64,000 nt of DNA from a bacterium (GCA_963681965.1 OY820579.1:3584001-3648000); one strand, 5' to 3'. Counted from the first letter of the stretch, positions 1,139-52,140 are shown. The notes: generated by a model from the sequence alone, not told the origin. Translations and numbers: made by a program.

Positions 1139-1732
1139 ATGAATATGTTCGGCACTTGGATTGGTGCAATTTTAACGCTGATTTTGTTCAGCTTCCTCTA
1201 TAAAGACAATCCGCTGTATCGATTGGCGGAAAATATCTTCGTCGGAATTTCCACCGGTTACTTTATCGCGCTGGAATGGCAGAATGTTCTGAAGCCAAAC
1301 GTCGTCGAGAAAGTGATGGCGGGTAACTGGGTACCGATTATACCGGCGATATTGGGTGTAGTGTTGTTGCTGCAGCTATCGCAGAAATACGGCTGGATCG
1401 CCCGCTATTCGATCGCGTTGTATATCGGTGTCGGTGCCGCGTTGAATATGGTGTTGTACACTCAGGGGCAGCTCATTCCGCAGATTCAAGGCACGATGCT
1501 GAAGTTGAACAGCATCTCGAATATCATCATCATCGTTGGAACGATCACTTCGCTAGCGTATTTCTTCTTTGCGATCGAGAACAAGACGTTGGGGCGGGTT
1601 TCGAAGATCGGGATAGGGTTCCTGATGATCAGTTTCGGTGCGGCGTACGGCACTACTGTGATGGGGCGTGTCTCACTGCTCATCGCTCGATTCGACTTCC
1701 TGATCAACGACTGGATCCGCGCGATGTTTTAG
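1139..1732 (+). CDS. Polytopic membrane protein of unknown function
   Basis: 197 aa with about 6 hydrophobic segments; GGAGG RBS upstream. Confidence 0.8.
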   Translation: MNMFGTWIGAILTLILFSFLYKDNPLYRLAENIFVGISTGYFIALEWQNVLKPNVVEKVMAGNWVPIIPAILGVVLLLQLSQKYGWIARYSIALYIGVGAALNMVLYTQGQLIPQIQGTMLKLNSISNIIIIVGTITSLAYFFFAIENKTLGRVSKIGIGFLMISFGAAYGTTVMGRVSLLIARFDFLINDWIRAMF

Positions 1733-1765
1733 ATTTCTAGCTTCTCGGAATGTTTTTGATTTCAA

Positions 1766-2055
1766 GTAGGGGCGGACCCCCGTGTCCGCCCGTTTTTTTT
1801 ATCTTATTTTTATCCTTTCCCTTCTTTTTTTATTCTTATTCTTTTCATTTCTTTCTTACATCTTTCATTCTTTCCCCAATTTCCATTCCCTATCCCCTAA
1901 TCCCTATCTTGTTCGTAGGGGCGTATGGCATACGCCCAATCTTGTATCTTGTTCAGTCATTGCGAGGAATGCGCCGAAAGGCGCATGACGTGGCAACCGC
2001 GCAGCGCTCACCGAAGGCAATCTCTCTTTTTCGTAGGGGCGTATGGCATGCGCCC
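1766..2055 (+). repeat. Cluster of GTAG-type REP-like palindromes
   Basis: GTAG+GGGCGGAC..GTCCGCCC (1766-1791), GTAG+GGGCGTATG..ATACGCCC (1915-1937), a third copy at 2033-2055, plus a GTCATTGCGAG..GCGCCGAAAGGCGC..GGCAACC palindrome (~1956-1998). The first also has a T-tract and may terminate the upstream operon. Confidence 0.75.
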
Positions 2056-2067
2056 AATCTTTTTTCA

Positions 2068-2441
2068 GTACTGCCGATCTCCGAATCGGCGCTTTTATCA
2101 TTTCCAGCTAGCTTTGAAAGAAATCCAAACAAACAAAAGAATGCCCAATCGGAGTTGGGCAGTACTGCCGATCTCCGAATCGGCTCTTTTATCGGTTTCA
2201 GTTGGCTATTAAATGAAAACAAACAAAAGAAAAAGATGCCCAATCGGAGTTGGGAAGTACTGCCGATCTCCGAATCGGCTCTTTTATCGTTTTCAGTTGG
2301 CTTTTAAATGAAAACAAACAAAAGAATGCCCAATCGGAGTTGGGAAGTACTGCCGATCTCCGAATCGGCTCTTTTGTCGTTTTCAGTTAGCTTTAAAAAG
2401 AAAACAAAAAAAAAAAACGCCCAATCGGAGTTGGGCAGTAC
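2068..2441. repeat. Tandem array of four ~90-95 bp REPIN/MITE-like units
   Basis: Each unit is GTAC-TGCCGATCTCCGAATCGGC...GCCCAATCGGAGTTGGG(C/A)A-GTAC; shared GTAC at 2068, 2162, 2257, 2347, 2438; the two ends are imperfect inverted copies and each is itself a hairpin. Confidence 0.85.
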
Positions 2442-2718
2442 TGCGGAAGCGGCTTTTGTATCCTTTTTGATGTCGCAACAATATCAACCATTCACTCTTC
2501 TCGGCGAGACAAATACAGAACCCTTCACAAACAATATTTATTCTTATTTAATAATATATTATAACAAACTCTCACACGATGTTTATTTTTTCACAATACT
2601 TCCGATTCCGATTTATTTTCGTTTCTTGCTGGTTCGCACTTGCATCTCTTTTTTTTTACTACTTTGTAAGTAGCCGTATCAAATTGCACTGCTTCAGCAG
2701 CACGGTATTCCAGAATTT

Positions 2719-2737
2719 GATAATGATAATGATTTCA
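2719..2737 (+). promoter_or_regulatory. Putative Fur box upstream of cassette-1 lipoprotein
   Basis: GATAATGATAATGATTTCA, 15/19 match to the classical GATAATGATAATCATTATC. Confidence 0.5.
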
Positions 2738-2880
2738 AAGTTGTTTCGCGGCTACCGAACTGCACCGAACGGCACATCCGATACGTGTCTTCGACGAACC
2801 ATGAACTGAAACCGGGGTTTTGCTTCGCGCACTGCAACAGTACAGAATCAATACCTTCCTACTCTCGAAAGGAATGAATC

Positions 2881-3783
2881 ATGAAAAAGCATCTGATCTG
2901 GATTACGCTTCTCCTCGCGTCGATTTTTGTGTATTTTGGTTGCTATAGCACCGACAATTCGAACAAGAACGGAATGAGTCCGAAAAACCATTCCGGCAAG
3001 GGTGGTGCTCAAATTGCTTCGGTTGGATTGCCGGAAGGTTGGGATGCAGTTGGCATTATTCACAACTGTGTGATGGAGTATGTAGACAGCGCACTATGCG
3101 TAGATTATAAAAACAACTGGAATGATTCAATATTGTCTTCAAATATCCGTAATTATGTAAATACATATATTAAAAATAACATAACTTTTGATACTATATT
3201 TTACACTTGTATGGATACAATGAATCTAAAATCATTGCACTCAAAACAAGAATTTATTGATTTAATAGATTATTATCGATCACAAAATTATATTACTCAA
3301 CAAGAATCTTTGTATAGTCACAGGTTTATTGACATGCTATTTAATGAAAAAATGAATGATACCTTATTTGACGACAGTCTTTTAGTCTTTAAAAATGATC
3401 TAGAGAAATTATCTTGGAAAGATGATGAGTTATTTCTCCCAACTATATTATCAGTCGCAATGCATAGTTGGGAATATGCAAAACATCGCGGTAAATTTAA
3501 CCCGCAACCAGTTGAAGATACTGTTATTATTCCCATTTCATTAGATCCTGGTTTATTAAGTTCGGATCTTTGGGGAGCAGCAGCTGGCTTTGCAGCTGGT
3601 AGAACCTTTGGATGGATTGGAGAACAAATTATCATTAATAAAGGTTTGGCTGCAATACCTGGTTTTGGACAAGGAATGGTTATAATCGGTTCAGCATGGG
3701 GTGCTGGCTATAATTCAGCCAAATACAATGCTTGGTCAATAACGACAGGTCAATGGTTAATCTGGCCACTCGTAATCTGGTAA
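2881..3783 (+). CDS. Lipoprotein with C-terminal glycine-zipper/hydrophobic tail (putative toxin, cassette 1)
   Basis: Signal peptide ending VYFG-C21; AAGGA RBS; AT-rich body; tail DLWGAAAGFAAG...GSAWGAG; first 55 aa identical to 6092..6898. Confidence 0.75.
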   Translation: MKKHLIWITLLLASIFVYFGCYSTDNSNKNGMSPKNHSGKGGAQIASVGLPEGWDAVGIIHNCVMEYVDSALCVDYKNNWNDSILSSNIRNYVNTYIKNNITFDTIFYTCMDTMNLKSLHSKQEFIDLIDYYRSQNYITQQESLYSHRFIDMLFNEKMNDTLFDDSLLVFKNDLEKLSWKDDELFLPTILSVAMHSWEYAKHRGKFNPQPVEDTVIIPISLDPGLLSSDLWGAAAGFAAGRTFGWIGEQIIINKGLAAIPGFGQGMVIIGSAWGAGYNSAKYNAWSITTGQWLIWPLVIW

Positions 3784-3927
3784 TTTCTTTACTTTCTACA
3801 ATAGTGATTTGCTTGATAATGTGCAAGAAGATTCTATCATTTAGTGCTGAAGATTCTTTTTGTCCAGAAGTCAAGTTTATTCTTCCTGAAACTTTTCTCA
3901 ATTTCTTCGAATGGAAGCAAGTGAAAT

Positions 3928-4227
3928 ATGAGCACAATCTTCATTTATGCTATTACTGTACTGTTTATTTCTGTTGCTATTCTATTAACATTTCACTTTT
4001 TTATGAGAAATAAACGTACATCTTATTCAGTCGAAGCATTATTACATAGCAATAAAGTAAATACTTTTATTCTATTATATATTGCTTTATGGCTAATAAT
4101 TGCATCCGATCATGTTGATATCGGCGTTTTCGGCTTTCGGTATCATGGATTATTTTACGTTTGTTGCCTTGGTTTATTGATTGGAATTGCTGATCTTATC
4201 TATAAGTATATCAATAAAAATAAATGA
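3928..4227 (+). CDS. Small membrane protein (putative immunity protein)
   Basis: 99 aa, about 3 TM; clear paralog of 5003..5311 (shared KVNTFILL, SDHVD, FGFxxHG). Confidence 0.75.
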   Translation: MSTIFIYAITVLFISVAILLTFHFFMRNKRTSYSVEALLHSNKVNTFILLYIALWLIIASDHVDIGVFGFRYHGLFYVCCLGLLIGIADLIYKYINKNK

Positions 4228-4286
4228 TCCTCAATCGATCATTCTGACCAAGAGTTTGTATTCAATTTCAGTAACTGATCGATATC

Positions 4287-4310
4287 GGCGGAACACACGA
4301 TTCGCCTTGA
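4287..4310. repeat. Degenerate copy of the cassette-end hairpin
   Basis: GGCGGAACACACGATTCGCCTTGA resembles GGCGGACCATTCGATCCGCCTTGA. Confidence 0.5.
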
Positions 4311-4400
4311 TCAAATTCCAGTCCCGGAAATTAATCGTAATATTTCCGGATTGATAGGCATACAAGAGGAGGGGCAACTCGAGCTACCTCTGAGGACACC

Positions 4401-4733
4401 ATGTTGTCGATCAATCTCAGTTCATTTGAAATTAGCTTGATAGCTGGAATTTTTGTGCTATTTTTGAATTTTCTTAAAATTCTGACGGTCGAGCTGCATC
4501 AAAATGAAGGATTCAAAATACTTCCAATTTTTGGCATATCGTTTACGATTGGAGGGTATTTCAGTCTTATCTTTCTTGTTCTTACAACAATGACATCACA
4601 AAAGGTAATGATCGAAGATTTATTTTTAGCTACCTTTTGCGTAGTCACATTATGTTTCATAGTCAATGGAATTAGATCCTTAGTACATTTTAAACAAACC
4701 ATTAAGGCTTCACATTCTCTTAAATCGAATTGA
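4401..4733 (+). CDS. Small membrane protein (putative orphan immunity protein)
   Basis: 110 aa, about 3 TM, GAGGA RBS, followed by the shared hairpin. Confidence 0.65.
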   Translation: MLSINLSSFEISLIAGIFVLFLNFLKILTVELHQNEGFKILPIFGISFTIGGYFSLIFLVLTTMTSQKVMIEDLFLATFCVVTLCFIVNGIRSLVHFKQTIKASHSLKSN

Positions 4734-4763
4734 AGAGGATTTATTCAAAGTCGAAATAATGAA

Positions 4764-4789
4764 CAAGGCGGACCATTCGATCCGCCTTG
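4764..4789. terminator. Cassette-end hairpin / intrinsic terminator copy
   Basis: CAAGGCGGA-CCATTCGA-TCCGCCTTG followed by a T-rich stretch. Confidence 0.65.
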
Positions 4790-5002
4790 ATCCATTTTTC
4801 AATTTCTCGTTCCTCTATTACCGATATAGATATTGAATTGGAGATATCTAAAAACAATTTTACTTGACCCAAAAATATACTATCTTAACAACACAGTTGT
4901 TTTTTAACAAGACATCTTAACACCAAGTTAATGATTTATTATCTGAAGTAGCAGATTATGTATCCAAAGGCAATTTACTAAGATCGGTAGCTCGGAGATA
5001 CG

Positions 5003-5311
5003 ATGAATTCATTCACAATATATATCTACGCATTCGGGGTACTACTTCTTTCTGTTCCATTGTTGTTTGTATTCCATATTCTCACAAGAAATGTGCATTC
5101 AGCCTTCTCAACCGAAGTTCTGTTGCATCGATACAAAGTAAATACTTTTATTCTTCTGTTTATAATATTATGGTTGAGCCTCGTTTCCGATCATGTCGAC
5201 ATGAATTCGTTCGGTTTTCAATTTCACGGTTTCTATTACATCTGTTTTCTTGGATTCTTAATTGCACTGGCTGATCTATTTTTAAAACATTTCAATAAAA
5301 AACGGGATTAA
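5003..5311 (+). CDS. Small membrane protein, paralog of 3928..4227 (putative orphan immunity protein)
   Basis: 102 aa; colinear with 3928..4227; GGAG RBS. Confidence 0.75.
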   Translation: MNSFTIYIYAFGVLLLSVPLLFVFHILTRNVHSAFSTEVLLHRYKVNTFILLFIILWLSLVSDHVDMNSFGFQFHGFYYICFLGFLIALADLFLKHFNKKRD

Positions 5312-5374
5312 TCAACAGTCTATCTTAAATCTAAGGTGAAAGATCTTACGAAATCTACGAGTCTGGAAAACTCA

Positions 5375-5503
5375 AACAAGGCGGACCATTCGATCCGCCT
5401 TGTTCATTTTTCCCACGATCGAAGTTGTTCGCTACCGCTTATGGCACTCGACACAACTCATGTTCTTGTGGCAGGCAAAGCAATTTTCGTGCAGCGCAAC
5501 CTT
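5375..5503. repeat. Direct-repeat copy of the hairpin plus the 3' end of the cytochrome c gene (11505-11628)
   Basis: Near-identical to 11505-11628; minus strand reads KVALHENCFACHKNMSCVECHKR*. Confidence 0.9.
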
Positions 5504-5513
5504 GACCCCAGCT

Positions 5514-6255
5514 TCTTTTCGGAGGGGCGTCTGGCATATGCCCGATCTTTTTTCAGTACTGCCGATCTCCGAATCGGCTCTTTTGTCGTTTTCAGTTAGC
5601 TTTAAAAAGAAAACAAAAAAAAAAAACGCCCAATCGGAGTTGGGCAGTATTGCGGAAGCGGCTTTTGTATCCTTTTTGATGTCGCAACAATATCAACCAT
5701 TCACTCTTCTCGGCGAGACAAATACAGAACCCTTCACAAATAATTATTTATTCTTATTTAATAATATATTATAACAAACTCTCACACGATGTTTATTTTT
5801 TCACAATACTTCCGAATCCGATTTATTTTCATTTCTTGCTGGTTCACACTTGCATCTCTTTTTTTTTTACTACTTTGTAAGTAGCCGTATCAAATTGCAC
5901 TGCTTCAGCAGCACGGTATTCCAGAATTTGATAATGATAATGATTTCAAAGTTGTTTCGCGGCGACCGAACTGCACCGAACGGCACATCCGATAGGAGTC
6001 TTCGACGAACCATGAACTGAAACCGGGGTTTTGCTTCGCGCACTGCAACAGTACAGAATCAATACCTTCCTACTCTCGAAAGGAATGAATCATGAAAAAG
6101 CATCTGATCTGGATTACGCTTCTCCTCGCGTCGATTTTTGTGTATTTTGGTTGCTATAGTACCGACAATTCAAACAAGAACGGGATGAGTCCGAAAAACC
6201 ATTCCGGCAAGGGTGGAGCTCAAATTGCTTCGGTAGGATTGCCGGAAGGATGGGA
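5514..6255 (+). repeat. Cassette-2 constant region: decayed REP, one REPIN unit, leader and first 55 codons
   Basis: From 5556 on it is near-identical to 2347-3045; identity stops abruptly after the codons for LPEGWD. Confidence 0.9.
5930..5948 (+). promoter_or_regulatory. Putative Fur box upstream of cassette-2 lipoprotein
   Basis: Same GATAATGATAATGATTTCA as 2719-2737. Confidence 0.5.
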
Positions 6256-6898
6256 TAAAGCTGGGATCGATCACAACAAAGCAATGGAATATGCATATAA
6301 TTTTTTTAAAGACAAAATAGATTCAACATGGATAAATGATTCAATAATAAATGTAACGAAAAATATTATGATGAGATATTTTATTGATTCATTAAAATAC
6401 GATTCAAATAATTTATATTTCAAATTCGACAATATATTATTCAACAAATACACACTTGATACAGTAATAAATAATTTAAATATATTACTAGATAGCAATT
6501 TAATGACAACACGAGAGTATAATTATTCTTTGAGAATGTTTAATTTTTTATTCGATAGCTCGGTTACTGATAGTATACTTGGAGATAGTATTAATTTATT
6601 TATAAATGACTTAAACAAAATCGAATGGAACAACGATGAAAAATTATTATTTGTTTTTTCAAGTATAATGAAATATAGCTATGAATTTCACACTTCACAT
6701 AATAAAGACGGTAAATTGGATCGATTCAGTGTCAAAGAGTTAATAATAGCTGACATTCTTGGTGGTGTCGTTGGCGCGGTAATAGGAATTCGCGGTGGCT
6801 GGGTTGCAATGCTTGGATGTGGTGCGTTTTTTGCTTTCTTTTTTTCATTCCTAGATTTTGCTTTGCAAGTAATACGGGATAATGGATTGTTTTGGTAA
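6092..6898 (+). CDS. Lipoprotein with C-terminal glycine-zipper/hydrophobic tail (putative toxin, cassette 2)
   Basis: Same lipoprotein leader as 2881..3783; diverged homologous middle (GxxHNxxMEY; NDLxKxxWxxDE); tail ADILGGVVGAVIGIRGGWVAMLGCG. Confidence 0.75.
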   Translation: MKKHLIWITLLLASIFVYFGCYSTDNSNKNGMSPKNHSGKGGAQIASVGLPEGWDKAGIDHNKAMEYAYNFFKDKIDSTWINDSIINVTKNIMMRYFIDSLKYDSNNLYFKFDNILFNKYTLDTVINNLNILLDSNLMTTREYNYSLRMFNFLFDSSVTDSILGDSINLFINDLNKIEWNNDEKLLFVFSSIMKYSYEFHTSHNKDGKLDRFSVKELIIADILGGVVGAVIGIRGGWVAMLGCGAFFAFFFSFLDFALQVIRDNGLFW

Positions 6899-6913
6899 CT
6901 GATAGAGGCAAAT

Positions 6914-7273
6914 ATGAACTGGACTATAATATTCTGGGTATTTATTACGATCCAATCAATCTTATTACTATTTATCGTTTACTTCATCGATAAAATCATC
7001 TCGTTGCCGAAGTACTTTCCCTTTTTCAAAACTAAGATAACAAAAAGCTTAGTGAAAAATCGGGAGTCAAACGATTCGATCCAAAAAGATCGAAATGTTT
7101 ATCGATTTACTTGGTTATATACAACACTCTGGTTCGGTGCGTTCTCGCCAGCACATTTACTTCCGAAATGGGGAGAAAACGCTGGAATTTTCGTGATGCT
7201 TTTTTCTCTATGTGTTTATTTATTTGCACTTTTCATATATCGAAAGAAAACAAATACCGCTCAAACGGAGTAA
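6914..7273 (+). CDS. Small membrane protein (putative cognate immunity, cassette 2)
   Basis: 119 aa, about 3 TM, starts 15 nt after the lipoprotein stop, GAGG RBS. Confidence 0.7.
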   Translation: MNWTIIFWVFITIQSILLLFIVYFIDKIISLPKYFPFFKTKITKSLVKNRESNDSIQKDRNVYRFTWLYTTLWFGAFSPAHLLPKWGENAGIFVMLFSLCVYLFALFIYRKKTNTAQTE

Positions 7274-7311
7274 TCAGTCACTTTCCAAATCCAATTTTTT
7301 TTTAAAAACTA

Positions 7312-7610
7312 AAGGCGGACCATTCGATCCGCCTTGTTCAATTTTCCCACGATGGAAGTCGTTCGCTACCGCTTATGGCACTCGACGCAACTCATGTTCT
7401 TGTGGCAGGCAAAGCAATTTTCGTGCAGCGCAACCTTGACCCCAGCTTCTTTTCGGAGGGGCGTCTGGCATATGCCCGATTTTTTTTCAGTACTGCCGAT
7501 CTCCGAATCGGCTCTTTTGTCGTTTTCAGTTAGCTTTAAAAAAAGAAAACAAAAAAAAAAAACGCCCAATCGGAGTTGGGCAGTACTGCGGAAGCGGCTT
7601 TTGTATCCTT
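7312..7610. repeat. Second copy of hairpin + cytochrome c 3' end + REP/REPIN (cassette 2/3 junction)
   Basis: Near-identical to ~5378-5674, including the same junction GCAACCTT|GACCCCAGC. Confidence 0.9.
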
Positions 7611-8830
7611 TGAAACCTCTGATTTAATCCCACGTTTTTGATGATTATCTCGTATTGCCGTTAGAGCCTATAACGGAGTTTACAATGTCCCTCGTTCCCT
7701 CTACCCGCGAATGGATTACCTTCGGTGAACTAGACGATCAGTGTCGCCGTCACAAGAAGAGCATGCTTGATGAGATCGATCGGTTGATCGATTTTCGTCC
7801 GATCGAGTCGCTGCTAATGCGGATGTACCGCGGCACCCGCGGTCGCCCCCCGATCCCGCCGTTGATGTTGTTCAAAGCGTTGCTGTTGGAACAATGGTAC
7901 GGTCTGTCGGATGTACAAGTGGTGCAGGAGATCCACGACCGACGCAGCTTCGAACGGTTTATCGGTTTTACCGTTCGCGATTATCTGTTGGACGATTCGA
8001 CCCTGGTTCGGTTCCGTCAACGGTTGCGCGACTTTCGTTACGAGAAGGAATTGTTCAATGAATTGAACCGTCAGTTGGCTTCGTTCGGTCTATTCGTTCG
8101 CAGTTGTACACTGGTCGACGCGACATTGGTCAAGGGTGCCACGACTGCGGGCTCCACCCGTGCCGACGGTACTCCGGTCGACCCCGATGTAACCATCACG
8201 GTCCGCAAAGATAAACCGGTCGACGGGATGAAAGTGCATGTTTCGATGGATCATGAAAGCGAGCTGATCGAAGCAGTCGACTTGACATCGAATATTGTTC
8301 ACGACTCGCAGGTGTTCGAGGCATTGCTTCCCGACGACACCGGTGGCGTGTTTGCCGACAAGGCGTACGATTCGACGGCACACCGCAACTTGATTCACGC
8401 CCGCCACTGGTACGACGGCATTCTTCACAAGGCAAGACGCAATCGTCGCTTGACGGAACATGAGCGATGCCGCAATCGATCCAACTCACGGATCCGAAGC
8501 CGGATCGAAGCCAAGATGAACGACTTGAAGCGGTGGGGACACCTCGCGCGTTTGCGCTATTACGGTATCGAACGGAATCTGACACAAGTCTACTTTACCG
8601 CCATGGCAGTGAACTTGAAACGGGCCTGCAAACTGGTGCTGGTAACCTGAAAAACGATAAATCGGAGAGTGAACTCTGCCCAAGCAGCAGAAATCACCGA
8701 AAATCATCAAAAAATCCAACCAAAATCGACCCCAATTACACTAAAATTTGCAATTCATTTCGAAAATCGTCGAAATCAGACTGATGAGGCAAAAGAGAGT
8801 GATACAAAAGTGATTTTTTCAGAGGTTTCA
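7611..8830 (+). mobile_element. IS5-family insertion sequence
   Basis: Perfect 12-bp terminal inverted repeats TGAAACCTCTGA/TCAGAGGTTTCA; flanking CTT duplicated relative to the empty sites at ~2463 and ~5672. Confidence 0.9.
7685..8650 (+). CDS. IS5-family DDE transposase
   Basis: GRPPIPPLMLFKALLLEQWYGLSD N-domain; LVDAT / ADKAYD / RSRIE..DLK DDE motifs; GGAG before ATG 7685. Confidence 0.92.
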   Translation: MSLVPSTREWITFGELDDQCRRHKKSMLDEIDRLIDFRPIESLLMRMYRGTRGRPPIPPLMLFKALLLEQWYGLSDVQVVQEIHDRRSFERFIGFTVRDYLLDDSTLVRFRQRLRDFRYEKELFNELNRQLASFGLFVRSCTLVDATLVKGATTAGSTRADGTPVDPDVTITVRKDKPVDGMKVHVSMDHESELIEAVDLTSNIVHDSQVFEALLPDDTGGVFADKAYDSTAHRNLIHARHWYDGILHKARRNRRLTEHERCRNRSNSRIRSRIEAKMNDLKRWGHLARLRYYGIERNLTQVYFTAMAVNLKRACKLVLVT

Positions 8831-9030
8831 CTTTTTGATGTCGCAACAATATCAACCATTCACTCTTCTCGGCGAGACAAATACAGAACCCTTCACAAAT
8901 AATTATTTATTCTTATTTAATAATATATTATAACAAACTCTCACACGATGTTTATTTTTTCACAATACTTCAGAATCCGATTTATTTTCGTTTCTTGCTG
9001 GTTCGCACTTGCATCTCTTTTTTTTTACTA
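8831..9030 (+). repeat. Continuation of the cassette constant leader after IS5
   Basis: Matches ~2463-2660 and ~5672-5872; diverges at ~9030, before the Fur-box-like site. Confidence 0.88.
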
Positions 9031-9485
9031 GTTTAGGAATAATTTCAATAATCATCTTTAATTATATACTCAATTATTCACTTATCAGGAGTGTGTTATG
9101 GTAAAGAATATTAACACCAATGCAATTTCTGCATTATCGATTGGATCATTCGCACAGGTTGCATCTTGGTTTGATTATTTAGCCGGTCCGAAAATTGATG
9201 ATTTCGGTCTATGGAAATCTGGTAACTTTCTTGTGGATCACTTCGAAACTATTTACGAAACAATCGAGGATTTTGTTCTTTTAAAATCAATTAAACTTTA
9301 CGACTGCAATCAAAATAGTGCTACTATTTCTTATTTAGCAGACGTTCCATCCAATACTTCGTATGCAGAATTTCAATTCAACGGAGTATTAGAAGCTACT
9401 ATGTCTGAAGTGGTCCCGTTTTCCTGGACAGTTTGTTAGTTAGATTGCTTTGCCCGATATTTTGATAGCAAGTATGGAGTTGAAG

Positions 9486-9788
9486 ATGTCGGGAATACGA
9501 CGGACATTATCGCCTGATTTCAAGGCGAAGGTAGCATTAGCCGCACTCAAGGGTGATAAGACAGTATCTGAACTATCAAGTCTATATCAAGTTCATCCGA
9601 ACCAGATCAGTCAGTGGAAGAAGCAGCTTTTGGATCATGCTGCATCGGTATTTGGCAAAACTGAATCGTCAGGAAGTGAAGAAGTAGATCTTAAGGAGCT
9701 GCGCGCCAAGATCGGCCAGTTAACGATGGAAAACGATTTTTTAGCAAAGGGGCTCAGTCGCTTGGGCGTTCTGAGCGTGAAGCGCTGA
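9486..9788 (+). CDS. IS3 transposase OrfA (HTH)
   Basis: FKAKVALAALKGDKTVSELSSLYQVHPNQISQWKK; overlaps the OrfB frame at -1, candidate slip site GATTTTTTAG near 9737. Confidence 0.88.
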   Translation: MSGIRRTLSPDFKAKVALAALKGDKTVSELSSLYQVHPNQISQWKKQLLDHAASVFGKTESSGSEEVDLKELRAKIGQLTMENDFLAKGLSRLGVLSVKR

Positions 9789-9811
9789 TCGATCCGGGTG
9801 CCCGTTTACCG

Positions 9812-10621
9812 TTGGTTCAGCAGTGTTCTTTAATCAAGGTTCCACGCAGCAGTTACTACTATCGCCCTGTTCCGCTTGATTCGAACAATTTGATGCTGTT
9901 GCGAACGCTGGATGAGCTTCACCTGAAGGTTCCGTTCTACGGTGCCCGTAAACTGGTGGTGGAGTTATCGAAGCAGGGTATCGATGTTGGTCGGAAAAAG
10001 GTTCGTTCCTTGCTACGCATCCTCGGTCTGGAAGCATTGTACCGCAAGCCGCGTACGACGGTTCCTGACAAGGAACACAAGATTTATCCGTACTTGCTTC
10101 GCGACTTGACGGTTGATCGCGCGAATCAAGTATGGGCGACCGACATCACGTACATCCCACTGGCAAAGGGTTTTGTGTACCTGGTGGCGGTGATCGACTG
10201 GTTCAGTCGCAAGGTGTTGTCGTGGCGGTTGTCGAATACGCTGGATACGCATTCCTGTGTGGAAGCATTGAAGGATGCGTTGTCGAAGTATGGGAAGCCT
10301 GAGATCTTCAACAGCGATCAAGGGTGTCAGTTTACCAGCGTCGCATTTACGGATGTTTTGAAAGAGGCAGGCGTTCGGATCAGTATGGATGGTAAAGGTC
10401 GGTGGATGGATAACCGTTTTGTCGAACGATTGTGGAAGTCGTTGAAGTACGAGGAAGTATACTTGAAAGGGTACGATTCAGTTCGCATTGCAGAGCGCAG
10501 TATCGGTGAATATTTTTTGTTTTACAATGCGGAGCGTTCCCATCAAGCTTTGGACTGTCGCACCCCAGATGAGGTCTACATCGATAGTCTTAGCAAATTT
10601 TCTTGTCAGGCAGCTGCCTGA
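9812..10621 (+). CDS. IS3 transposase OrfB (rve/DDE)
   Basis: [31 protein letters not shown]. Confidence 0.92.
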
Positions 10622-11229
10622 CAAGAAACAGCAGAAAGTGGGCAGTGCAATCTAACTAAGATTCGCACAAAACTGTCCAAACGGAGGGTACCACCTCAGT
10701 CTGAAAGCTGGGATGATGTTATCAATACTATGTCCGTTAAACTAACATCACCACAAGACATAAACGCTGATTTAACAATTATAATGTCAAATTATTCCAA
10801 ACAATCGAGTGATGTTACGATCTACTTTGCAAACAATGTATATTCATTTACAATGAATTTCGCTAACCCAGCTGTAAATACCGAACTACTTGCATGGAAA
10901 CAAGCAATCATGAATTACCATTCTCAAATAGTTGTTAATTCTATTACATTGGAAGCTTGTATGCCAAGCTTGGGCACTATGGGGAATACTGGTTGTACTG
11001 TGGATAATATAAGTCCGAAAGATTGTGCATGTCTTGCTGCGTCTTGTTTAGTTGGAGCAGGAGTTGGCACTGGTGTTTTGATTATTACAAATGGATTAGC
11101 AGCAGGTTGGGGACAATTAGTTGGAGCTGTGGGTGGCTTCTCTGCGATTGGCGCTGCCAACTGGGCAGCTCAAAAAGCATATGATATCAATGTTGGGCGA
11201 GTAAGACTAATCCAGCATTAGGAGTCGTT

Positions 11230-11439
11230 ATGAAAAAAAAATCTGTAGTACTATATCTCTTAGCTTCATTGATTCTCTCTGTTTATTTTCTTTTTTCGGG
11301 AGCGAATCAATGTTTTAAATCGGGTATGGACTTCGCAGTGTTAACTGCTATCACGATGTATATTTGTGGATTCGCTGGTACAATATTGAGTGCTGCATCA
11401 CTGTTTAATTTTGTTCTCAAGAAAAATAGTAGTAAGTAA
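11230..11439 (+). CDS. Small 2-TM membrane protein (putative cognate immunity, cassette 3)
   Basis: 69 aa, AGGAG RBS overlapping the upstream stop, two hydrophobic segments. Confidence 0.65.
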   Translation: MKKKSVVLYLLASLILSVYFLFSGANQCFKSGMDFAVLTAITMYICGFAGTILSAASLFNFVLKKNSSK

Positions 11440-11504
11440 AGCCGAATCCTAAATTCATCGCGAAAATATCAAATCAAGTCTATTTACTCTGATAATTTTA
11501 CTAC

Positions 11505-11530
11505 AGGCGGACCGTTCGGTCCGCCTTGTT
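11505..11530. terminator. Hairpin between the convergent cassette locus and cytochrome c gene
   Basis: AGGCGGACCG-TT-CGGTCCGCCT. Confidence 0.65.
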
Positions 11531-11556
11531 CATTTTCCCACGATGGAAGTCGTTCG

Positions 11557-11964
11557 CTACCGCTTATGGCACTCGACGCAACTCATGTTCTTGTGGCAGG
11601 CAAAGCAATTTTCGTGCAGCGCAACCTTCGATTCCGAGATGTCGATCGGTTTCACTTCCTTCTGATGGCAATGCTTGCAACTCTCCACATGGTGGCAACG
11701 AATACATTCCAATTTAAAATCGGTGACGTGTTTCTTGTGATTGAAGATGATCTGCGTTCCGCCAAGATACTTCGTCTGGAAAACATATTCATCGGGAATC
11801 GGTCGTACCCGATTCTGCCAGTCGTATAGAATCGACGTCGAATCGAGTTTCTCTTTGACTTCCCCGGTCGAGCCGTGTTTCGATTCGGCGGGGGTCGATG
11901 GACTGGTTTCGGCAATCGCAATCACGAACATTGCCAATAGAACAAACAGAATAATGCGTTTCAT
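11557..11964 (-). CDS. Periplasmic tetraheme c-type cytochrome (c3/c7-like)
   Basis: Sec signal; FNHKKH; four CxxCH (CIRCH, CKHCH, CFACH, CVECH). Confidence 0.88.
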   Translation of the reverse strand: MKRIILFVLLAMFVIAIAETSPSTPAESKHGSTGEVKEKLDSTSILYDWQNRVRPIPDEYVFQTKYLGGTQIIFNHKKHVTDFKLECIRCHHVESCKHCHQKEVKPIDISESKVALHENCFACHKNMSCVECHKR

Positions 11965-11984
11965 TGTATCCTCACACTCTTCGA

Positions 11985-13193
11985 TTAATGCGTTGTCTCA
12001 TGCGTCAAATGCGCGTCCAGCACGTCCGCTTCGATCCCTTCGTGTTCGCTAAGTTCCGGGAACACCGGGAAGAATCGGGCAATAAAGTAAAATACCAGCA
12101 TCCCGCAGGTGAGCAGGAACAGCGAAATGGAAACTTCCGTATAGGCAGGATAGTAGTTCCAGTGCGAATTGCGCAACATCCCTATCCAACTGACATTGAA
12201 CCGGTTATAGAGAATGCCGGCAACGACCATGAAACTGGCAGTGAACAACCATTTGGGATTCATGCGCAATTTCTTGATTGCGATAATGCCAATCGGAATG
12301 ATCAGCAGCGCCATTTCTAAAATGAAGTGGATGCTTTCGAATTCGCCGGAAAATACTTTATTCGCAACGCCGCGAACGAACAGGTCCTGAATCTTGATAC
12401 CGGTATAGACGATCAAAGCGACTTGGAGAAAATACGCGAGTTCGATCAAAATCGGCGTCTCGAGACCGCGCTTGAAAACCCTCGCGCTGAATGTCGATTC
12501 GACAATCACCATCGCCGGACCGACTGTCACTGCCGACAAGAAGAATAGCAGCGGAATGATCGGCGTGTACCATAATGGATGCAGTTTTTCCGGGACAATC
12601 AAGAAAACCGATCCGAGTGACGACTGGTGCAATGTCGAAAGCAACACACCGGCAATAACCAGCGGAATCGTAATTCGCCGAAGAATTTTCAGCGGCTTCA
12701 CCAGATTGAATTTCTCGAGCACCACCGGAACGAATTCCAGAAAGAGCACGGTGAGGTATAGCATCACGCACCAGGCGACTTCAAACATCACCGAGTGTGG
12801 ATTGCCCATGATCATCGGATGCCAGACATTGAACCACTTACCAAGGTCGTACAACAATCCGACTGCCACCAGCAGATAGCCGAGAAACGCGGTCAAAACC
12901 GTTGGACGCACAATTGCATGGAATTTCTCGTAGCCGATGACATACACCAGAAAGCAAAGCGTGAACCCGCCTGCCGCCAATGCAACACCACCGACGACAT
13001 CGAAACTGATCCAGAGACCCCAGGGGAAATTGTCGGCAAGATTCGTGACCTGACCCAGTCCGAAGATGAACCGCTTGAGCGTCAGGATAGTACCTTGAAT
13101 CAGAATGAAAATAAAAATCAACCAAATAAATTTGCGCTTGAAGCTCATTCCGCGAATTTCATCGCGAATTGCAGTAAGAATCGTCTGAATCAT
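11985..13193 (-). CDS. NrfD/HybB/HmcC-family integral membrane quinone-interacting subunit
   Basis: PWGLWISFDV..GVALAAGGF, SVMFEVAWCVMLY, LSTLHQSSLG; about 10 TM. Confidence 0.9.
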   Translation of the reverse strand: MIQTILTAIRDEIRGMSFKRKFIWLIFIFILIQGTILTLKRFIFGLGQVTNLADNFPWGLWISFDVVGGVALAAGGFTLCFLVYVIGYEKFHAIVRPTVLTAFLGYLLVAVGLLYDLGKWFNVWHPMIMGNPHSVMFEVAWCVMLYLTVLFLEFVPVVLEKFNLVKPLKILRRITIPLVIAGVLLSTLHQSSLGSVFLIVPEKLHPLWYTPIIPLLFFLSAVTVGPAMVIVESTFSARVFKRGLETPILIELAYFLQVALIVYTGIKIQDLFVRGVANKVFSGEFESIHFILEMALLIIPIGIIAIKKLRMNPKWLFTASFMVVAGILYNRFNVSWIGMLRNSHWNYYPAYTEVSISLFLLTCGMLVFYFIARFFPVFPELSEHEGIEADVLDAHLTHETTH

Positions 13194-51035: not shown

Positions 51036-51580
51036 TCAACACCGTAATTTTCGAGTCTGTATCGAAATTCCTTGTGCGAGCTGAATCAAATAAGTACCCG
51101 ACGATAGCGACCGACCATCGAAATTCAATCGATAACTTCCGGGCTGCCGGTATCCACGATAAAGTGTACCGATCTCGCGACCCTGCAGGTCGAACACCGT
51201 CAGATTGATCGCTCCGCCAGTCGGCAGAGAATACGAAATCGAAGTAGATGAATTGAACGGATTCGGATAATTCGGATGTAGAATCATGCTGCTTGGAACC
51301 GAAAGAGATTTTTTATCGTCGAAGATCAGAAAATAATTATGACTTCGTCAACAGAAATTCAGCTATCAACCCCGGCGATAAAGGCGTAACCCGATTCTAC
51401 CGCAACATTACGGTCGAAATAATATCTTGGTAACACCACTGCACCAATCCGATGCAGCCCCGGCGTGGGTTGGGCATACCCCGATTCCGCACACACGAGA
51501 TTGAGCAACAGCAACCACAGCAACAAATTTACCCGCTTGAGTGAAGAAATATATGAGTGAATGCGAAAATTTCGATTCAT
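51036..51580 (-). pseudogene. Internally deleted remnant of a T9SS-cargo protein
   Basis: Signal peptide plus an LVIVD-like start (VAVESGYAFIA) at 51359..51580, then an isolated sorting domain YPNPFNSSTSISYSLP at 51036..51287. Confidence 0.6.
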
Positions 51581-51582
51581 GA

Positions 51583-52140
51583 TTAGGGATTCAAATAGGG
51601 CAAGTCTTCATCATGCTCAAATACAATTTTTTCACAATTAATATAAAGACAGTCATTAATAATGGCAATTACTAAAACAAATATACCAACAAAAAATACA
51701 AGCAAACTATATTGACGTTGATGAAAATTTGAACAATAACCGAGTAAAAGTGCAGCAAAAATTGCCCATGACGTACAATATAGGAAATGACACTGGTCTG
51801 CCCACTCGATCATATTTACTTGAATATTATTTTTTTTTAATTTATTAACCCAGCTATCTATAGATTGTTGGTGCATCGAACTATCTATATTACAATATAT
51901 AAGACAAAATTTATGAGTAATATAAGTACCTATTGCTCTATGTATTGAATAGATCAAACTTCCAACTCCAATTATGAGAAATAGAAAACCTGAAGCTATG
52001 AATACATTATCGAGACTTTTCGTAAAGAATAAATCAGGCTCAACATCAAATGATATAAATAAAGCGACGAAATAAAACATCCCACCAAAACCATACCGCA
52101 GTAATTGATTTAGATTAAACATATTCATATTATTCTCCAA
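51583..52140 (-). CDS. AT-rich membrane protein (about 4 TM), unknown function
   Basis: 185-aa ORF with hydrophobic helices; markedly lower GC than the flanks. Confidence 0.65.
   Translation of the reverse strand: MENNMNMFNLNQLLRYGFGGMFYFVALFISFDVEPDLFFTKSLDNVFIASGFLFLIIGVGSLIYSIHRAIGTYITHKFCLIYCNIDSSMHQQSIDSWVNKLKKNNIQVNMIEWADQCHFLYCTSWAIFAALLLGYCSNFHQRQYSLLVFFVGIFVLVIAIINDCLYINCEKIVFEHDEDLPYLNP

Follow-up and report, generated by a model that had tools for sequence, protein, structure and literature searches.

In a 64,000-nucleotide stretch of a bacterial genome (GCA_963681965.1 OY820579.1:3584001-3648000; hereafter the window, to which all coordinates refer, on the + strand unless stated otherwise), two genes encode lipoprotein-like proteins, LP1 (2881-3783, 300 aa) and LP2 (6092-6898, 268 aa), that share an N-terminal leader of 55 residues and then diverge abruptly. 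LP1 and LP2 are mosaic genes, in which a shared 5′ module is joined to old, distant paralogous bodies. What is conserved at their 5′ ends is a 700-nt block of DNA, rather than the 55-residue peptide, and this block stems from recent recombination or gene conversion. The lipoprotein and a small membrane protein encoded next to it constitute a conserved two-gene module, which may act as a toxin-immunity cassette.

Mosaic structure of LP1 and LP2

In pairwise DNA alignment the two copies of the block (2346-3045 and 5555-6256) are approximately 98% identical, differing in total by 14 substitutions and two indels. The near-identity begins at 2346/5555, far upstream of the start codons, so that about three quarters of the block are non-coding and the leader forms only its last quarter. 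Eight of the substitutions and both indels, of one base each, lie in the 535 nt of non-coding DNA 5′ of the ATG, while the 165 nt of the leader differ at 2949, 2961, 2973, 3006, 3024 and 3039, each time synonymously. A reading made from the sequence only had described residues 1-55 as identical with six silent DNA differences, and the DNA alignment confirms both the identity and the list of codons. Beyond codon 55 the first differences follow at 3046, 3047, 3050, 3054 and 3057-3059, placing the recombination junction at 3045/3046, where the high-identity block ends with codon 55 (D in GWD) and the diverged codons begin, inside the family-wide W-D-x-x-G-I-x-H-N motif. Identity in 45-nt windows amounts to 43-45/45 up to this point, 39/45 in the junction window and 23/45 in the next, and then settles at ~50%, while the GC content, taken over windows of 300 nt, is 0.42-0.45 before and 0.21-0.31 after the joint. 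The collapse of identity that the sequence-only reading had reported after LPEGWD is therefore sharp, the rise in AT content reported with it is borne out, and the motifs it had picked out in the middle of the proteins (GI.HN..MEY, NDL.K..W..DE and S.E[YF]) and at the start of the tails (D-x-x-G) are found in the protein alignment.

The first part of the block (2346-2466) is one unit, of ~100 nt, of a dispersed hairpin-rich repeat, and a blastn search with 2346-2880 gave 47 matches in the genome, most of them to query positions 1-102. The remaining upstream region (2467-2880, 414 nt) is cassette-specific, non-coding and presumed to hold the promoter and the 5′ untranslated region; it is ~98% identical to 5676-6091, within the second copy of the non-coding upstream block (5555-6091, delimited by DNA alignment and blastn). 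The same upstream DNA also stands 5′ of an unrelated gene in a third cassette, 2463-2661 recurring at 8831-9034. A small hairpin is located directly 5′ of the ATG of both LP1 (2854-2872) and LP2 (6065-6083), over the purine-rich ribosome-binding stretch, and may serve translation control.

The genome, a single 4.24-Mb contig, contains one further copy of the leader, LP3, 327 kb away, with 75% protein and 72% DNA identity to the leader of LP1. About 250 nt 5′ of LP3 are recognisably conserved with the upstream region of the cassettes, and two partner-type genes lie 3′ of it; the gene itself is split after ...GIDHYYVM by a copy of an IS5-like insertion sequence (IS) element and resumes beyond it. 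Judged by these similarities, LP3 is a diverged copy of the LP1/LP2 leader on yet another body.

Leaders and bodies of the three genes have different histories. Between LP1 and LP2, dS/dN is 0.195/0 in the leader, 1.8/0.79 in the middle and 1.9/0.58 in the tail, the silent sites of the bodies being saturated. The GC content at third codon positions (GC3) lies between 0.51 and 0.53 for the three leaders but between 0.21 and 0.25 for the three bodies (Fisher p = 1.4e-4 for leader versus body of LP1); the partner genes range from 0.22 to 0.39 (from 0.21 with the bodies included), and the genome has a median of 0.50 over 1844 long open frames, only 0.27% of which are at or below 0.26. The bodies and the genes downstream of them are compositionally foreign, the leaders native-like. 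In the middle domain LP1 is 34% identical to LP3 and 25% to LP2 (25-29% across comparisons), and the tree of the bodies unites LP1 with LP3 (support 97/96), whereas the leaders group LP1 with LP2. This conflict between leader and body trees, together with the GC3 step, indicates that the genes are mosaics, joined at the W-D-x-x-G-I-x-H-N start of the body.

As judged from the alignments, recombination has occurred at the joint, either as replacement of a body together with its partner gene between conserved flanks, or as conversion of the 5′ module between old paralogs. The breakpoint that the sequence-only reading had placed near GWD is upheld by the sharp break in identity, the step in dS from 0.2 to 1.8 and the conflict between the trees. 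Its further proposal, that new bodies are swapped in there, stands with respect to recombination at the joint, but conversion of the 5′ block is the alternative to swapping, and holding the three bodies to one origin costs only 1.9 log-likelihood units, which the approximately unbiased (AU) test does not find significant (p = 0.38). Of the additional leader/body combinations it had anticipated, one was found in the genome, LP3, and none in the three other genomes of the same taxonomic family.

A history without import or exchange of bodies, in which LP1, LP2 and LP3 are old paralogs within the genome whose promoter-leader regions were homogenised by repeated conversion, is quite possible, if short of an even chance. 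The upstream non-coding DNA is as conserved as the leader, silent divergence steps up toward the joint in the manner expected of overlapping conversion tracts (0/14, then 6/21 sites, see below), and both the AU test and the lack of further leader/body combinations in the three same-family genomes agree with such concerted evolution. By contrast, the GC3 of bodies and partners (0.21-0.39) lies far under that of the genome and the leaders and would be hard to sustain in old residents unless selected, the nearest genomes yielded no member of the family, and the flanks conserved on both sides (with 5378-5626 matching 7312-7560 on the 3′ side) also allow replacement of whole cassettes. Concerted evolution concerns the history only and is compatible with a function as toxin and immunity protein. 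A recent tandem duplication after which positive selection drove the bodies apart very fast, the joint never having recombined, would account for tandem units with shared flanks, but it is scarcely credible, being contradicted already by a roughly nine-fold gap in dS (0.195 versus 1.8), beyond what selection at the protein level produces, by the conflict between leader and body trees and by the GC3 step at the joint.

The leader is nevertheless under selection, although the sequence-only reading had claimed so on other grounds. Between LP1 and LP2, 6 of 35 synonymous and 0 of 130 non-synonymous sites of the leader have changed (Nei-Gojobori counts; Fisher p = 6e-5), so the pattern is not due to chance. 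The silent changes are distributed unevenly, with 0/14 synonymous sites in codons 1-22, 6/21 in codons 23-55 and 8/535 positions in the non-coding DNA (leader synonymous sites versus non-coding DNA, Fisher p = 7e-5), and this indicates that two or more events, differing in age, were involved; overlapping conversion tracts are one example. Untouched by the recent LP1/LP2 event is the comparison of LP1 with LP3, which yields proportions of non-synonymous and synonymous differences (pN and pS) of 0.08 and 0.43 for the signal peptide (residues 1-21), 0.48 and 0.77 for the linker following the cysteine (22-36), and 0.047 and 0.63 for the motif HSGKGGA(Q/N)IASVGLPEGWD (37-55). Since 18 of the 19 residues of this pre-body motif are kept despite nearly saturated silent sites, purifying selection on the leader is real and acts mainly on these 19 residues, which directly precede the joint, with the signal peptide also constrained. 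The claim of selection is sustained by the 0 versus 6 changes and by the LP1-LP3 ratios, and not by the peptide identity of LP1 and LP2 cited for it, which mostly reflects recent common descent. The leader may serve in delivery, as had also been suggested.

The lipoprotein family and its membrane partners

LP1 and LP2 start with MKKH, followed by a 15-residue hydrophobic core and a lipobox-like VYFGC with the cysteine at position 21. The consensus of the lipobox is [LVI][ASTVI][GAS]C; in Y-F-G-C21 of LP1 and LP2 the G is at -1 and the Cys at +1, but a Y occupies -3. After the signal peptide LP1 continues with the variable linker (22-36), the motif HSGKGGAQIASVGLPEGWD (37-55), a helical middle (~54-222) and a glycine-zipper hairpin as tail (223-289). 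LP2 combines the leader of LP1 with a middle that is 25-29% identical to that of LP1 and with a different, more hydrophobic glycine-zipper tail. The tails carry the motif by which glycine zippers are defined, overlapping [GAS]xxx[GAS]xxx[GAS] occurring six times in LP1, three times in LP2 and seven times in the product of the cassette 3 gene (9098-11221). BLASTP between the tails of LP1 and cassette 3 gave E = 0.12, a compositional similarity only.

An exhaustive phmmer search of 1.84 billion representative sequences retrieved 24 proteins at E ≤ 0.001, four of which are pieces from the same genome. In the 20 foreign members the family starts with W-[DET]-x-x-G-[IV]-x-H-N; within the helical region R148, D165-S166, W179, E183 and S196 (LP1 numbering) are invariant or nearly so, and an invariant aspartate (D229) opens the tail, which is C-terminal and rich in Gly and Ala. 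The N-termini differ: in 11 of the 20 a hydrophobic leader closes with [GS]-C, at the place corresponding to Cys21, five have a domain of ~240 residues followed by a segment resembling FN3, as judged by eye, and four are short. Therefore the joint at GWD is a true domain boundary to which export modules attach. In the long forms (L019:808-2331, P0010, P0020, P0024 and P0016) a Cys-rich domain of ~190 aa and the FN3-like segment take the place of the lipoprotein leader; in one of them this segment begins with LYPNPATNQL and weakly matches the sorting domain of the type IX secretion system (Por_Secre_tail, E = 0.16), at an odd internal position before the toxin-like module.

Other searches added little to this set. 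A word-indexed protein search with LP1 returned only LP1 itself and LP2, and one with the C-terminal half of the cassette 3 protein only itself; a family-profile search found LP1, LP2 and one other protein among the 8000 candidates scored, and a three-sequence profile run against genome contigs found one locus, the source of a protein already in the set. Among the 23 members, the Pfam glycine-zipper models PF13441 (Gly-zipper_YMGG, best E 9e-7) and PF13488 match two each and PF13436 one, while P0020 reaches E = 0.23 with PF05433; LP1 and LP2 do not match any of these four models at E ≤ 1. The family occurs in 8 of 79 genomes of the host phylum (6 of 51 high-quality ones) and in none of the three other genomes of the same taxonomic family, and is rare and accessory. 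The lack of Pfam and NCBIfam models and of source names suggests that it is undescribed, the literature consulted being that on analogous systems.

An AlphaFold2 model of LP1, based on an alignment of 23 sequences, has a mean pLDDT of 81.7 and a pTM of 0.77. It shows a disordered linker (22-45), seven helices (56-202) and a helical hairpin (223-253/262-289), with a pLDDT of 83-95 over the blocks, and from it we infer that the glycine-zipper hairpin packs on the middle domain, which modelled by itself drops to a pLDDT of 72.8. Foldseek found no match at E ≤ 0.001 to either the full model or the middle domain (all E ≥ 0.1), and a wide VIA-align search reached a Z of at most 5.2 with the full model and 7.2 with the middle domain, the noise level for helical proteins. 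In the ESM Atlas the clusters returned, at 0.94-0.95, were hypothetical and without a name, and recognition was under the trusted level. Chains of the Bcl-2 family are present in both Foldseek lists at E ~1-3, and a homolog of diphtheria toxin has a Z of 4.0; these are leads only.

The candidate immunity or partner genes encode small membrane proteins. Behind LP1 lies imm1a (3928-4227), encoding 99 aa with three hydrophobic segments (GC3 0.22), and then a small membrane open reading frame (ORF; 4401-4733, 110 aa), possibly an orphan partner, with a weak alignment to the partner family, as well as the candidate orphan immunity gene imm1b (5003-5311, 102 aa), a paralog of imm1a with 54-55% identity. 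The candidate partner of LP2, imm2 (6914-7273, 119 aa), starts 15 nt past the LP2 stop codon. At 7 of 8 loci in seven other genomes a partner-type ORF is situated directly 3′ of the family gene on the same strand, with a gap of 6-55 nt and with ~100-125 aa (counted from an internal Met aligned across the family) and two or three hydrophobic segments; at the eighth locus, L020, no ORF passed the filter. Twelve partner proteins can be aligned, with a near-invariant Trp in the second segment and the layout transmembrane (TM) segment, basic charged loop, TM segment, short loop, TM segment and basic tail, so they appear from the alignment to be a weak sequence family. Neither the partner ORFs nor those of cassette 3 gave anything meaningful in Pfam, NCBIfam, PADLOC or PHROGs.

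The array and its surroundings

The locus consists of units in tandem, whose flanks are conserved and whose cores diverge. An inter-cassette repeat (5378-5626), consisting of a terminator hairpin, ~100 nt from the 3′ end of a cytochrome c gene and units of the dispersed repeat, is 96-97% identical to 7312-7560. The cytochrome c gene is found at 11557-11964 (- strand), and the region of its 3′ end (11505-11628) is the true copy: ~100 nt of this end and the terminator hairpin are copied after each cassette, at 5407-5503 and 7341-7437 (true copy 11532-11628). This suggests that the array grew by duplication or insertion at the end of the cytochrome c gene. The terminator hairpin was considered as a cassette-specific element and rejected, having seven copies in the genome, two of them after unrelated genes. 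The hairpin-rich repeat, in units of ~95-110 nt (core ...GCCCAATCGGAGTTGGGCAGTACTGCCGATCTCCGAATCGGC...), occurs in tandem at 2027-2467, at 5515-5675 and 7449-7611, and at dozens of sites in the genome; it looks like an element of the repetitive extragenic palindrome or miniature inverted-repeat (REP/MITE) type, and its hairpins score as bidirectional terminators. An Rfam search of 1500-12000 gave only sub-threshold noise from miRNA models, on the hairpin repeats.

The inter-cassette repeat and upstream block occur a third time at 7312-9034, split into 7312-7611 and 8831-9034 by an IS5-like element (7612-8829), which has six near-identical copies in the genome, including the one in LP3. The cassette 3 gene behind it (9098-11221) has no lipoprotein leader and an unrelated body with a glycine-zipper tail; it is interrupted in frame by an IS3-like element (9406-10698) with a 3-bp duplication, GTC, one of 10 copies in the genome with 91-100% identity. 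Both IS families look active, and both have struck cassettes of the system. Directly 3′ of the cassette 3 gene there is a small membrane ORF of 69 aa (11230-11439).

In the three genomes of the same taxonomic family the membrane-protein genes upstream of the array are kept, and different genes follow in the two loci with listed downstream ORFs. No tblastn match to the cytochrome c gene or the NrfD-like neighbours was obtained in these three loci, and none of the three genomes offers a clean empty site; the locus is variable. At the corresponding site of a genome of the same genus a different lipoprotein-like ORF of 157 aa (L026:1893-2366, ...FLTGCYSTRN..., with a C-terminal hydrophobic segment) is present, indicating that the site is variable.

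Sequencing runs were available as contigs only, and no RNA run was listed among those holding the locus. Contigs of two public runs, from two studies, match 2976-5483 and 6187-7370 with 0 differences, and since these contigs match exactly, the bodies of LP1 and LP2 are not an assembly artefact. A contig of run X4 departs from the reference at 4111, inside imm1a, and the contigs of run X5 do not cover 3255-6062 and contain a joint from 3133 to 6105, with a side of 31 nt. Such joints could represent strain variants of the array, for which the contig data are too weak to make a call. Elsewhere in the window, a short ORF on the - strand (51036-51287) begins with ...HPNYPNPFNSS... and, by recognition of this motif, resembles a stray C-terminal sorting domain of type IX secretion; it adjoins a compositionally foreign ORF of 185 aa with multiple TM segments (51583-52140, - strand, GC 0.29).

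Putative function and comparison with known systems

At this locus two genes form a conserved module, the paralogs are polymorphic and partner genes are in surplus; the composition is foreign, the distribution accessory, and the junction recombines. The three leader copies with their three bodies also show the trait of polymorphic toxins to combine a shared N-terminal part with divergent C-terminal parts. By analogy with CdzC/D-CdzI and EsxX-ExiCD, and with SitA as precedent for a modular lipoprotein, each unit can be read as a toxin-immunity cassette, composed of a lipoprotein-anchored membrane toxin and a membrane immunity protein, a reading in which our confidence is evenly balanced. The lipoprotein would be exported by Sec, processed by signal peptidase II and anchored by its lipid in the envelope; the host encodes LspA (PF01252, 5.8e-37) and Omp85 (six matches over the cut-off) and is a diderm with signal peptidase II, while the Pfam family of LolA was found neither in the host nor in a Bacteroides control. 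The helical domain would pack around an amphipathic glycine-zipper hairpin, the membrane-inserting warhead, which would depolarise or permeabilise the cytoplasmic membrane of the target cell, and which the small adjacent inner-membrane protein with three TM segments would neutralise in the producer. Imm1b, the ORF at 4401 and the second partner gene at LP3 would then be orphan immunity genes, and the pre-body motif a signal for sorting, processing or release that all bodies share. Another cell might be reached by vesicles, by contact or after cleavage at the conserved motif.

A number of points speak against this interpretation or the exchange of cassettes that goes with it. LP1 and LP2 match no family in Pfam, NCBIfam, PADLOC or PHROGs, the glycine-zipper models included, the fold searches gave nothing above the noise of helical bundles, and the comparison of the buried hairpin to colicins or Bcl-2 is a reading of the modelled secondary structure with no fold match behind it. 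The tail of LP1 is moderately hydrophobic only (maximum Kyte-Doolittle value, KD19, of 1.3), and no delivery route for a lipid-anchored toxin was identified in the host. As for the history, the uneven silent divergence in the block calls for more than one event, the AU test leaves a single origin of the three bodies standing, LP2 is a long branch of odd composition in the body tree, and the high AT content of the bodies, instead of being recent, could be maintained. Finally, some glycine-zipper lipoproteins, SlyB and YfgH, stabilise the envelope and are non-toxic.

As the main alternative, LP1 and LP2 may be envelope-maintenance lipoproteins of the SlyB/YfgH kind: the hairpin would sit in the membrane of the producer itself, the three-TM protein would be a partner of structural or regulatory kind, and the duplicates and the 5′ block would be by-products of a variable locus rich in repeats and IS elements. 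The architecture of lipobox-like leader and glycine-zipper hairpin agrees with this, 2 of the 23 members match the Gly-zipper_YMGG or Gly-zipper_Omp models, which describe outer-membrane lipoproteins, and the only PDB matches over the tail of the family profile are SlyB (E = 3) and a protein of the OmpA family (E = 1.2), both non-significant. YfgH and SlyB are described as glycine-zipper lipoproteins that stabilise the outer membrane (bioRxiv 10.64898/2025.12.22.696046). We nevertheless judge the envelope explanation unlikely, on account of the patchy, accessory distribution (8 of 79 phylum genomes, none of the three of the same family), the three very divergent paralogs with surplus partner genes in one genome, the foreign composition, and the conserved small membrane partner, set beside a SlyB match that is non-significant. 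To our knowledge SlyB has no equivalent of the small membrane partner, and in SlyB the zipper precedes a C-terminal domain, unlike in LP1 and LP2. A mobile element's lysis cassette, composed of a holin-like three-TM protein and a spanin-like lipoprotein, is suggested by the partner, which has ~100 aa, three hydrophobic segments and a basic C-terminus, by a lipoprotein as the other gene and by the IS elements in the locus, but is very improbable given no PHROGs match at E ≤ 0.05 and no phage genes or endolysin in the island, and a helical lipoprotein of 270-300 aa in this gene order does not fit spanins.

The toxin-immunity interpretation can be extended to a family of lipid-anchored glycine-zipper pore-forming toxins, in which the promoter-leader module would be a universal handle for export and release and the motif at G-W-D also a recombination hotspot, where AT-rich toxin-immunity cassettes would be exchanged from a foreign pool, as a lipoprotein counterpart of tip-swapping in CdiA and Rhs; this wider version we consider doubtful. 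New here are a family with no Pfam or NCBIfam model, the combination of a lipoprotein leader, a helical domain and a glycine-zipper tail with a three-TM partner, and a constant module that is unusually short and has 5′ homology running through the promoter. If the proteins are toxins, they would represent a new effector family and, with a lipoprotein leader or, among relatives, a large secreted N-terminal domain, a new delivery format among glycine-zipper membrane toxins, in a poorly studied phylum; the locus would also be a clear case from nature of cassettes exchanged at one definite junction. The 19-residue motif is a candidate sorting or processing signal. Whatever the function, the locus illustrates that an identical leader peptide may be mistaken for a sign of selection although it forms the end of a longer stretch of converted DNA.

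Among described systems, SitA/SitI of myxobacteria are polymorphic, modular lipoprotein toxins (PMC8546572). They and LP1/LP2 have in common an N-terminal lipoprotein signal, a conserved N-terminal part with exchangeable C-terminal parts, several paralogs per genome and an adjacent immunity gene, which in the LP loci is a candidate only. By contrast, the C-termini of SitA are nucleases that act in the cytoplasm, with N-terminal ‘escort domains’ defining families, whereas LP1 and LP2 end in a glycine-zipper hairpin, and their candidate immunity protein is an integral membrane protein. No nuclease or other Pfam domain was found in LP1 or LP2, and no nuclease domain by the Pfam scan of the 23-member set of relatives; SitA is characterised by a nuclease and by outer-membrane exchange through TraAB, and TraA and TraB were not searched for.

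Closer in the putative warhead are CdzC/D-CdzI, where glycine-zipper proteins are kept on the surface of the producer and the immunity protein is a small transmembrane protein (PMC5380434), and the glycine-zipper toxin EsxX, whose polytopic immunity protein ExiCD neutralises it from outside and also occurs in the form of orphan immunity genes (PMC12744356). With these the LP loci have in common a C-terminal glycine zipper as the putative warhead, a small or polytopic membrane protein encoded alongside and, as for ExiCD, orphan immunity genes, which in the LP loci are candidates. TelE, Tse4 and Ssp6 are further membrane-depolarising glycine-zipper toxins with membrane immunity proteins. Toxins of the Cdz/EsxX type are delivered by type I, type VII or type VI secretion systems with matching N-terminal signals (a GG-type leader or LXG), whereas the LP proteins start with a lipoprotein leader, which a large secreted domain replaces in 5 of 20 relatives. 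A helical domain of ~170 residues and unmatched fold precedes the zipper in the LP proteins, unlike in Cdz/EsxX, and the similarity is compositional only.

Pore-forming colicins possess an all-helical domain with a hydrophobic or amphipathic hairpin, and their immunity proteins of the Cai and Cei types are small inner-membrane proteins with three or four TM segments, encoded by the adjacent gene. The LP loci are alike in having a modelled helical domain with a helical hairpin and an adjacent gene for a small membrane protein, and differ in that receptor-binding and translocation domains are absent and the protein would be lipid-anchored, not released. The Pfam model Colicin (PF01024) was not matched, and no colicin chain is among the fold matches listed, whose best Z values of 5.2 and 7.2 are at noise level. 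SlyB, YfgH and Pcp are likewise lipoproteins with a two-helix glycine-zipper hairpin, but they are housekeeping stress proteins that are not polymorphic and have a different domain order, and they are not known to have a conserved membrane partner gene; the LP family profile matches the SlyB structure in the PDB (7ojf) at E = 3 and 10.3 bits, in the tail only, which does not place the family with SlyB.

Polymorphic toxin loci of the contact-dependent inhibition (CDI), Rhs and MafB types have demarcation motifs and orphan modules. As in these, identity in the LP array breaks sharply at a short conserved motif, behind which a variable, putative toxin-immunity cassette follows, and the cassettes stand in tandem arrays with candidate orphan immunity genes. 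The LP array differs in that each copy keeps a full promoter and leader, that the constant part comprises just 55 residues, and that the variable part is a diverged homologous domain, whereas unrelated toxin folds are exchanged in CDI, Rhs and MafB. Outside every named family tested, the locus in its layout resembles, by analogy, a polymorphic toxin locus with a demarcation motif.

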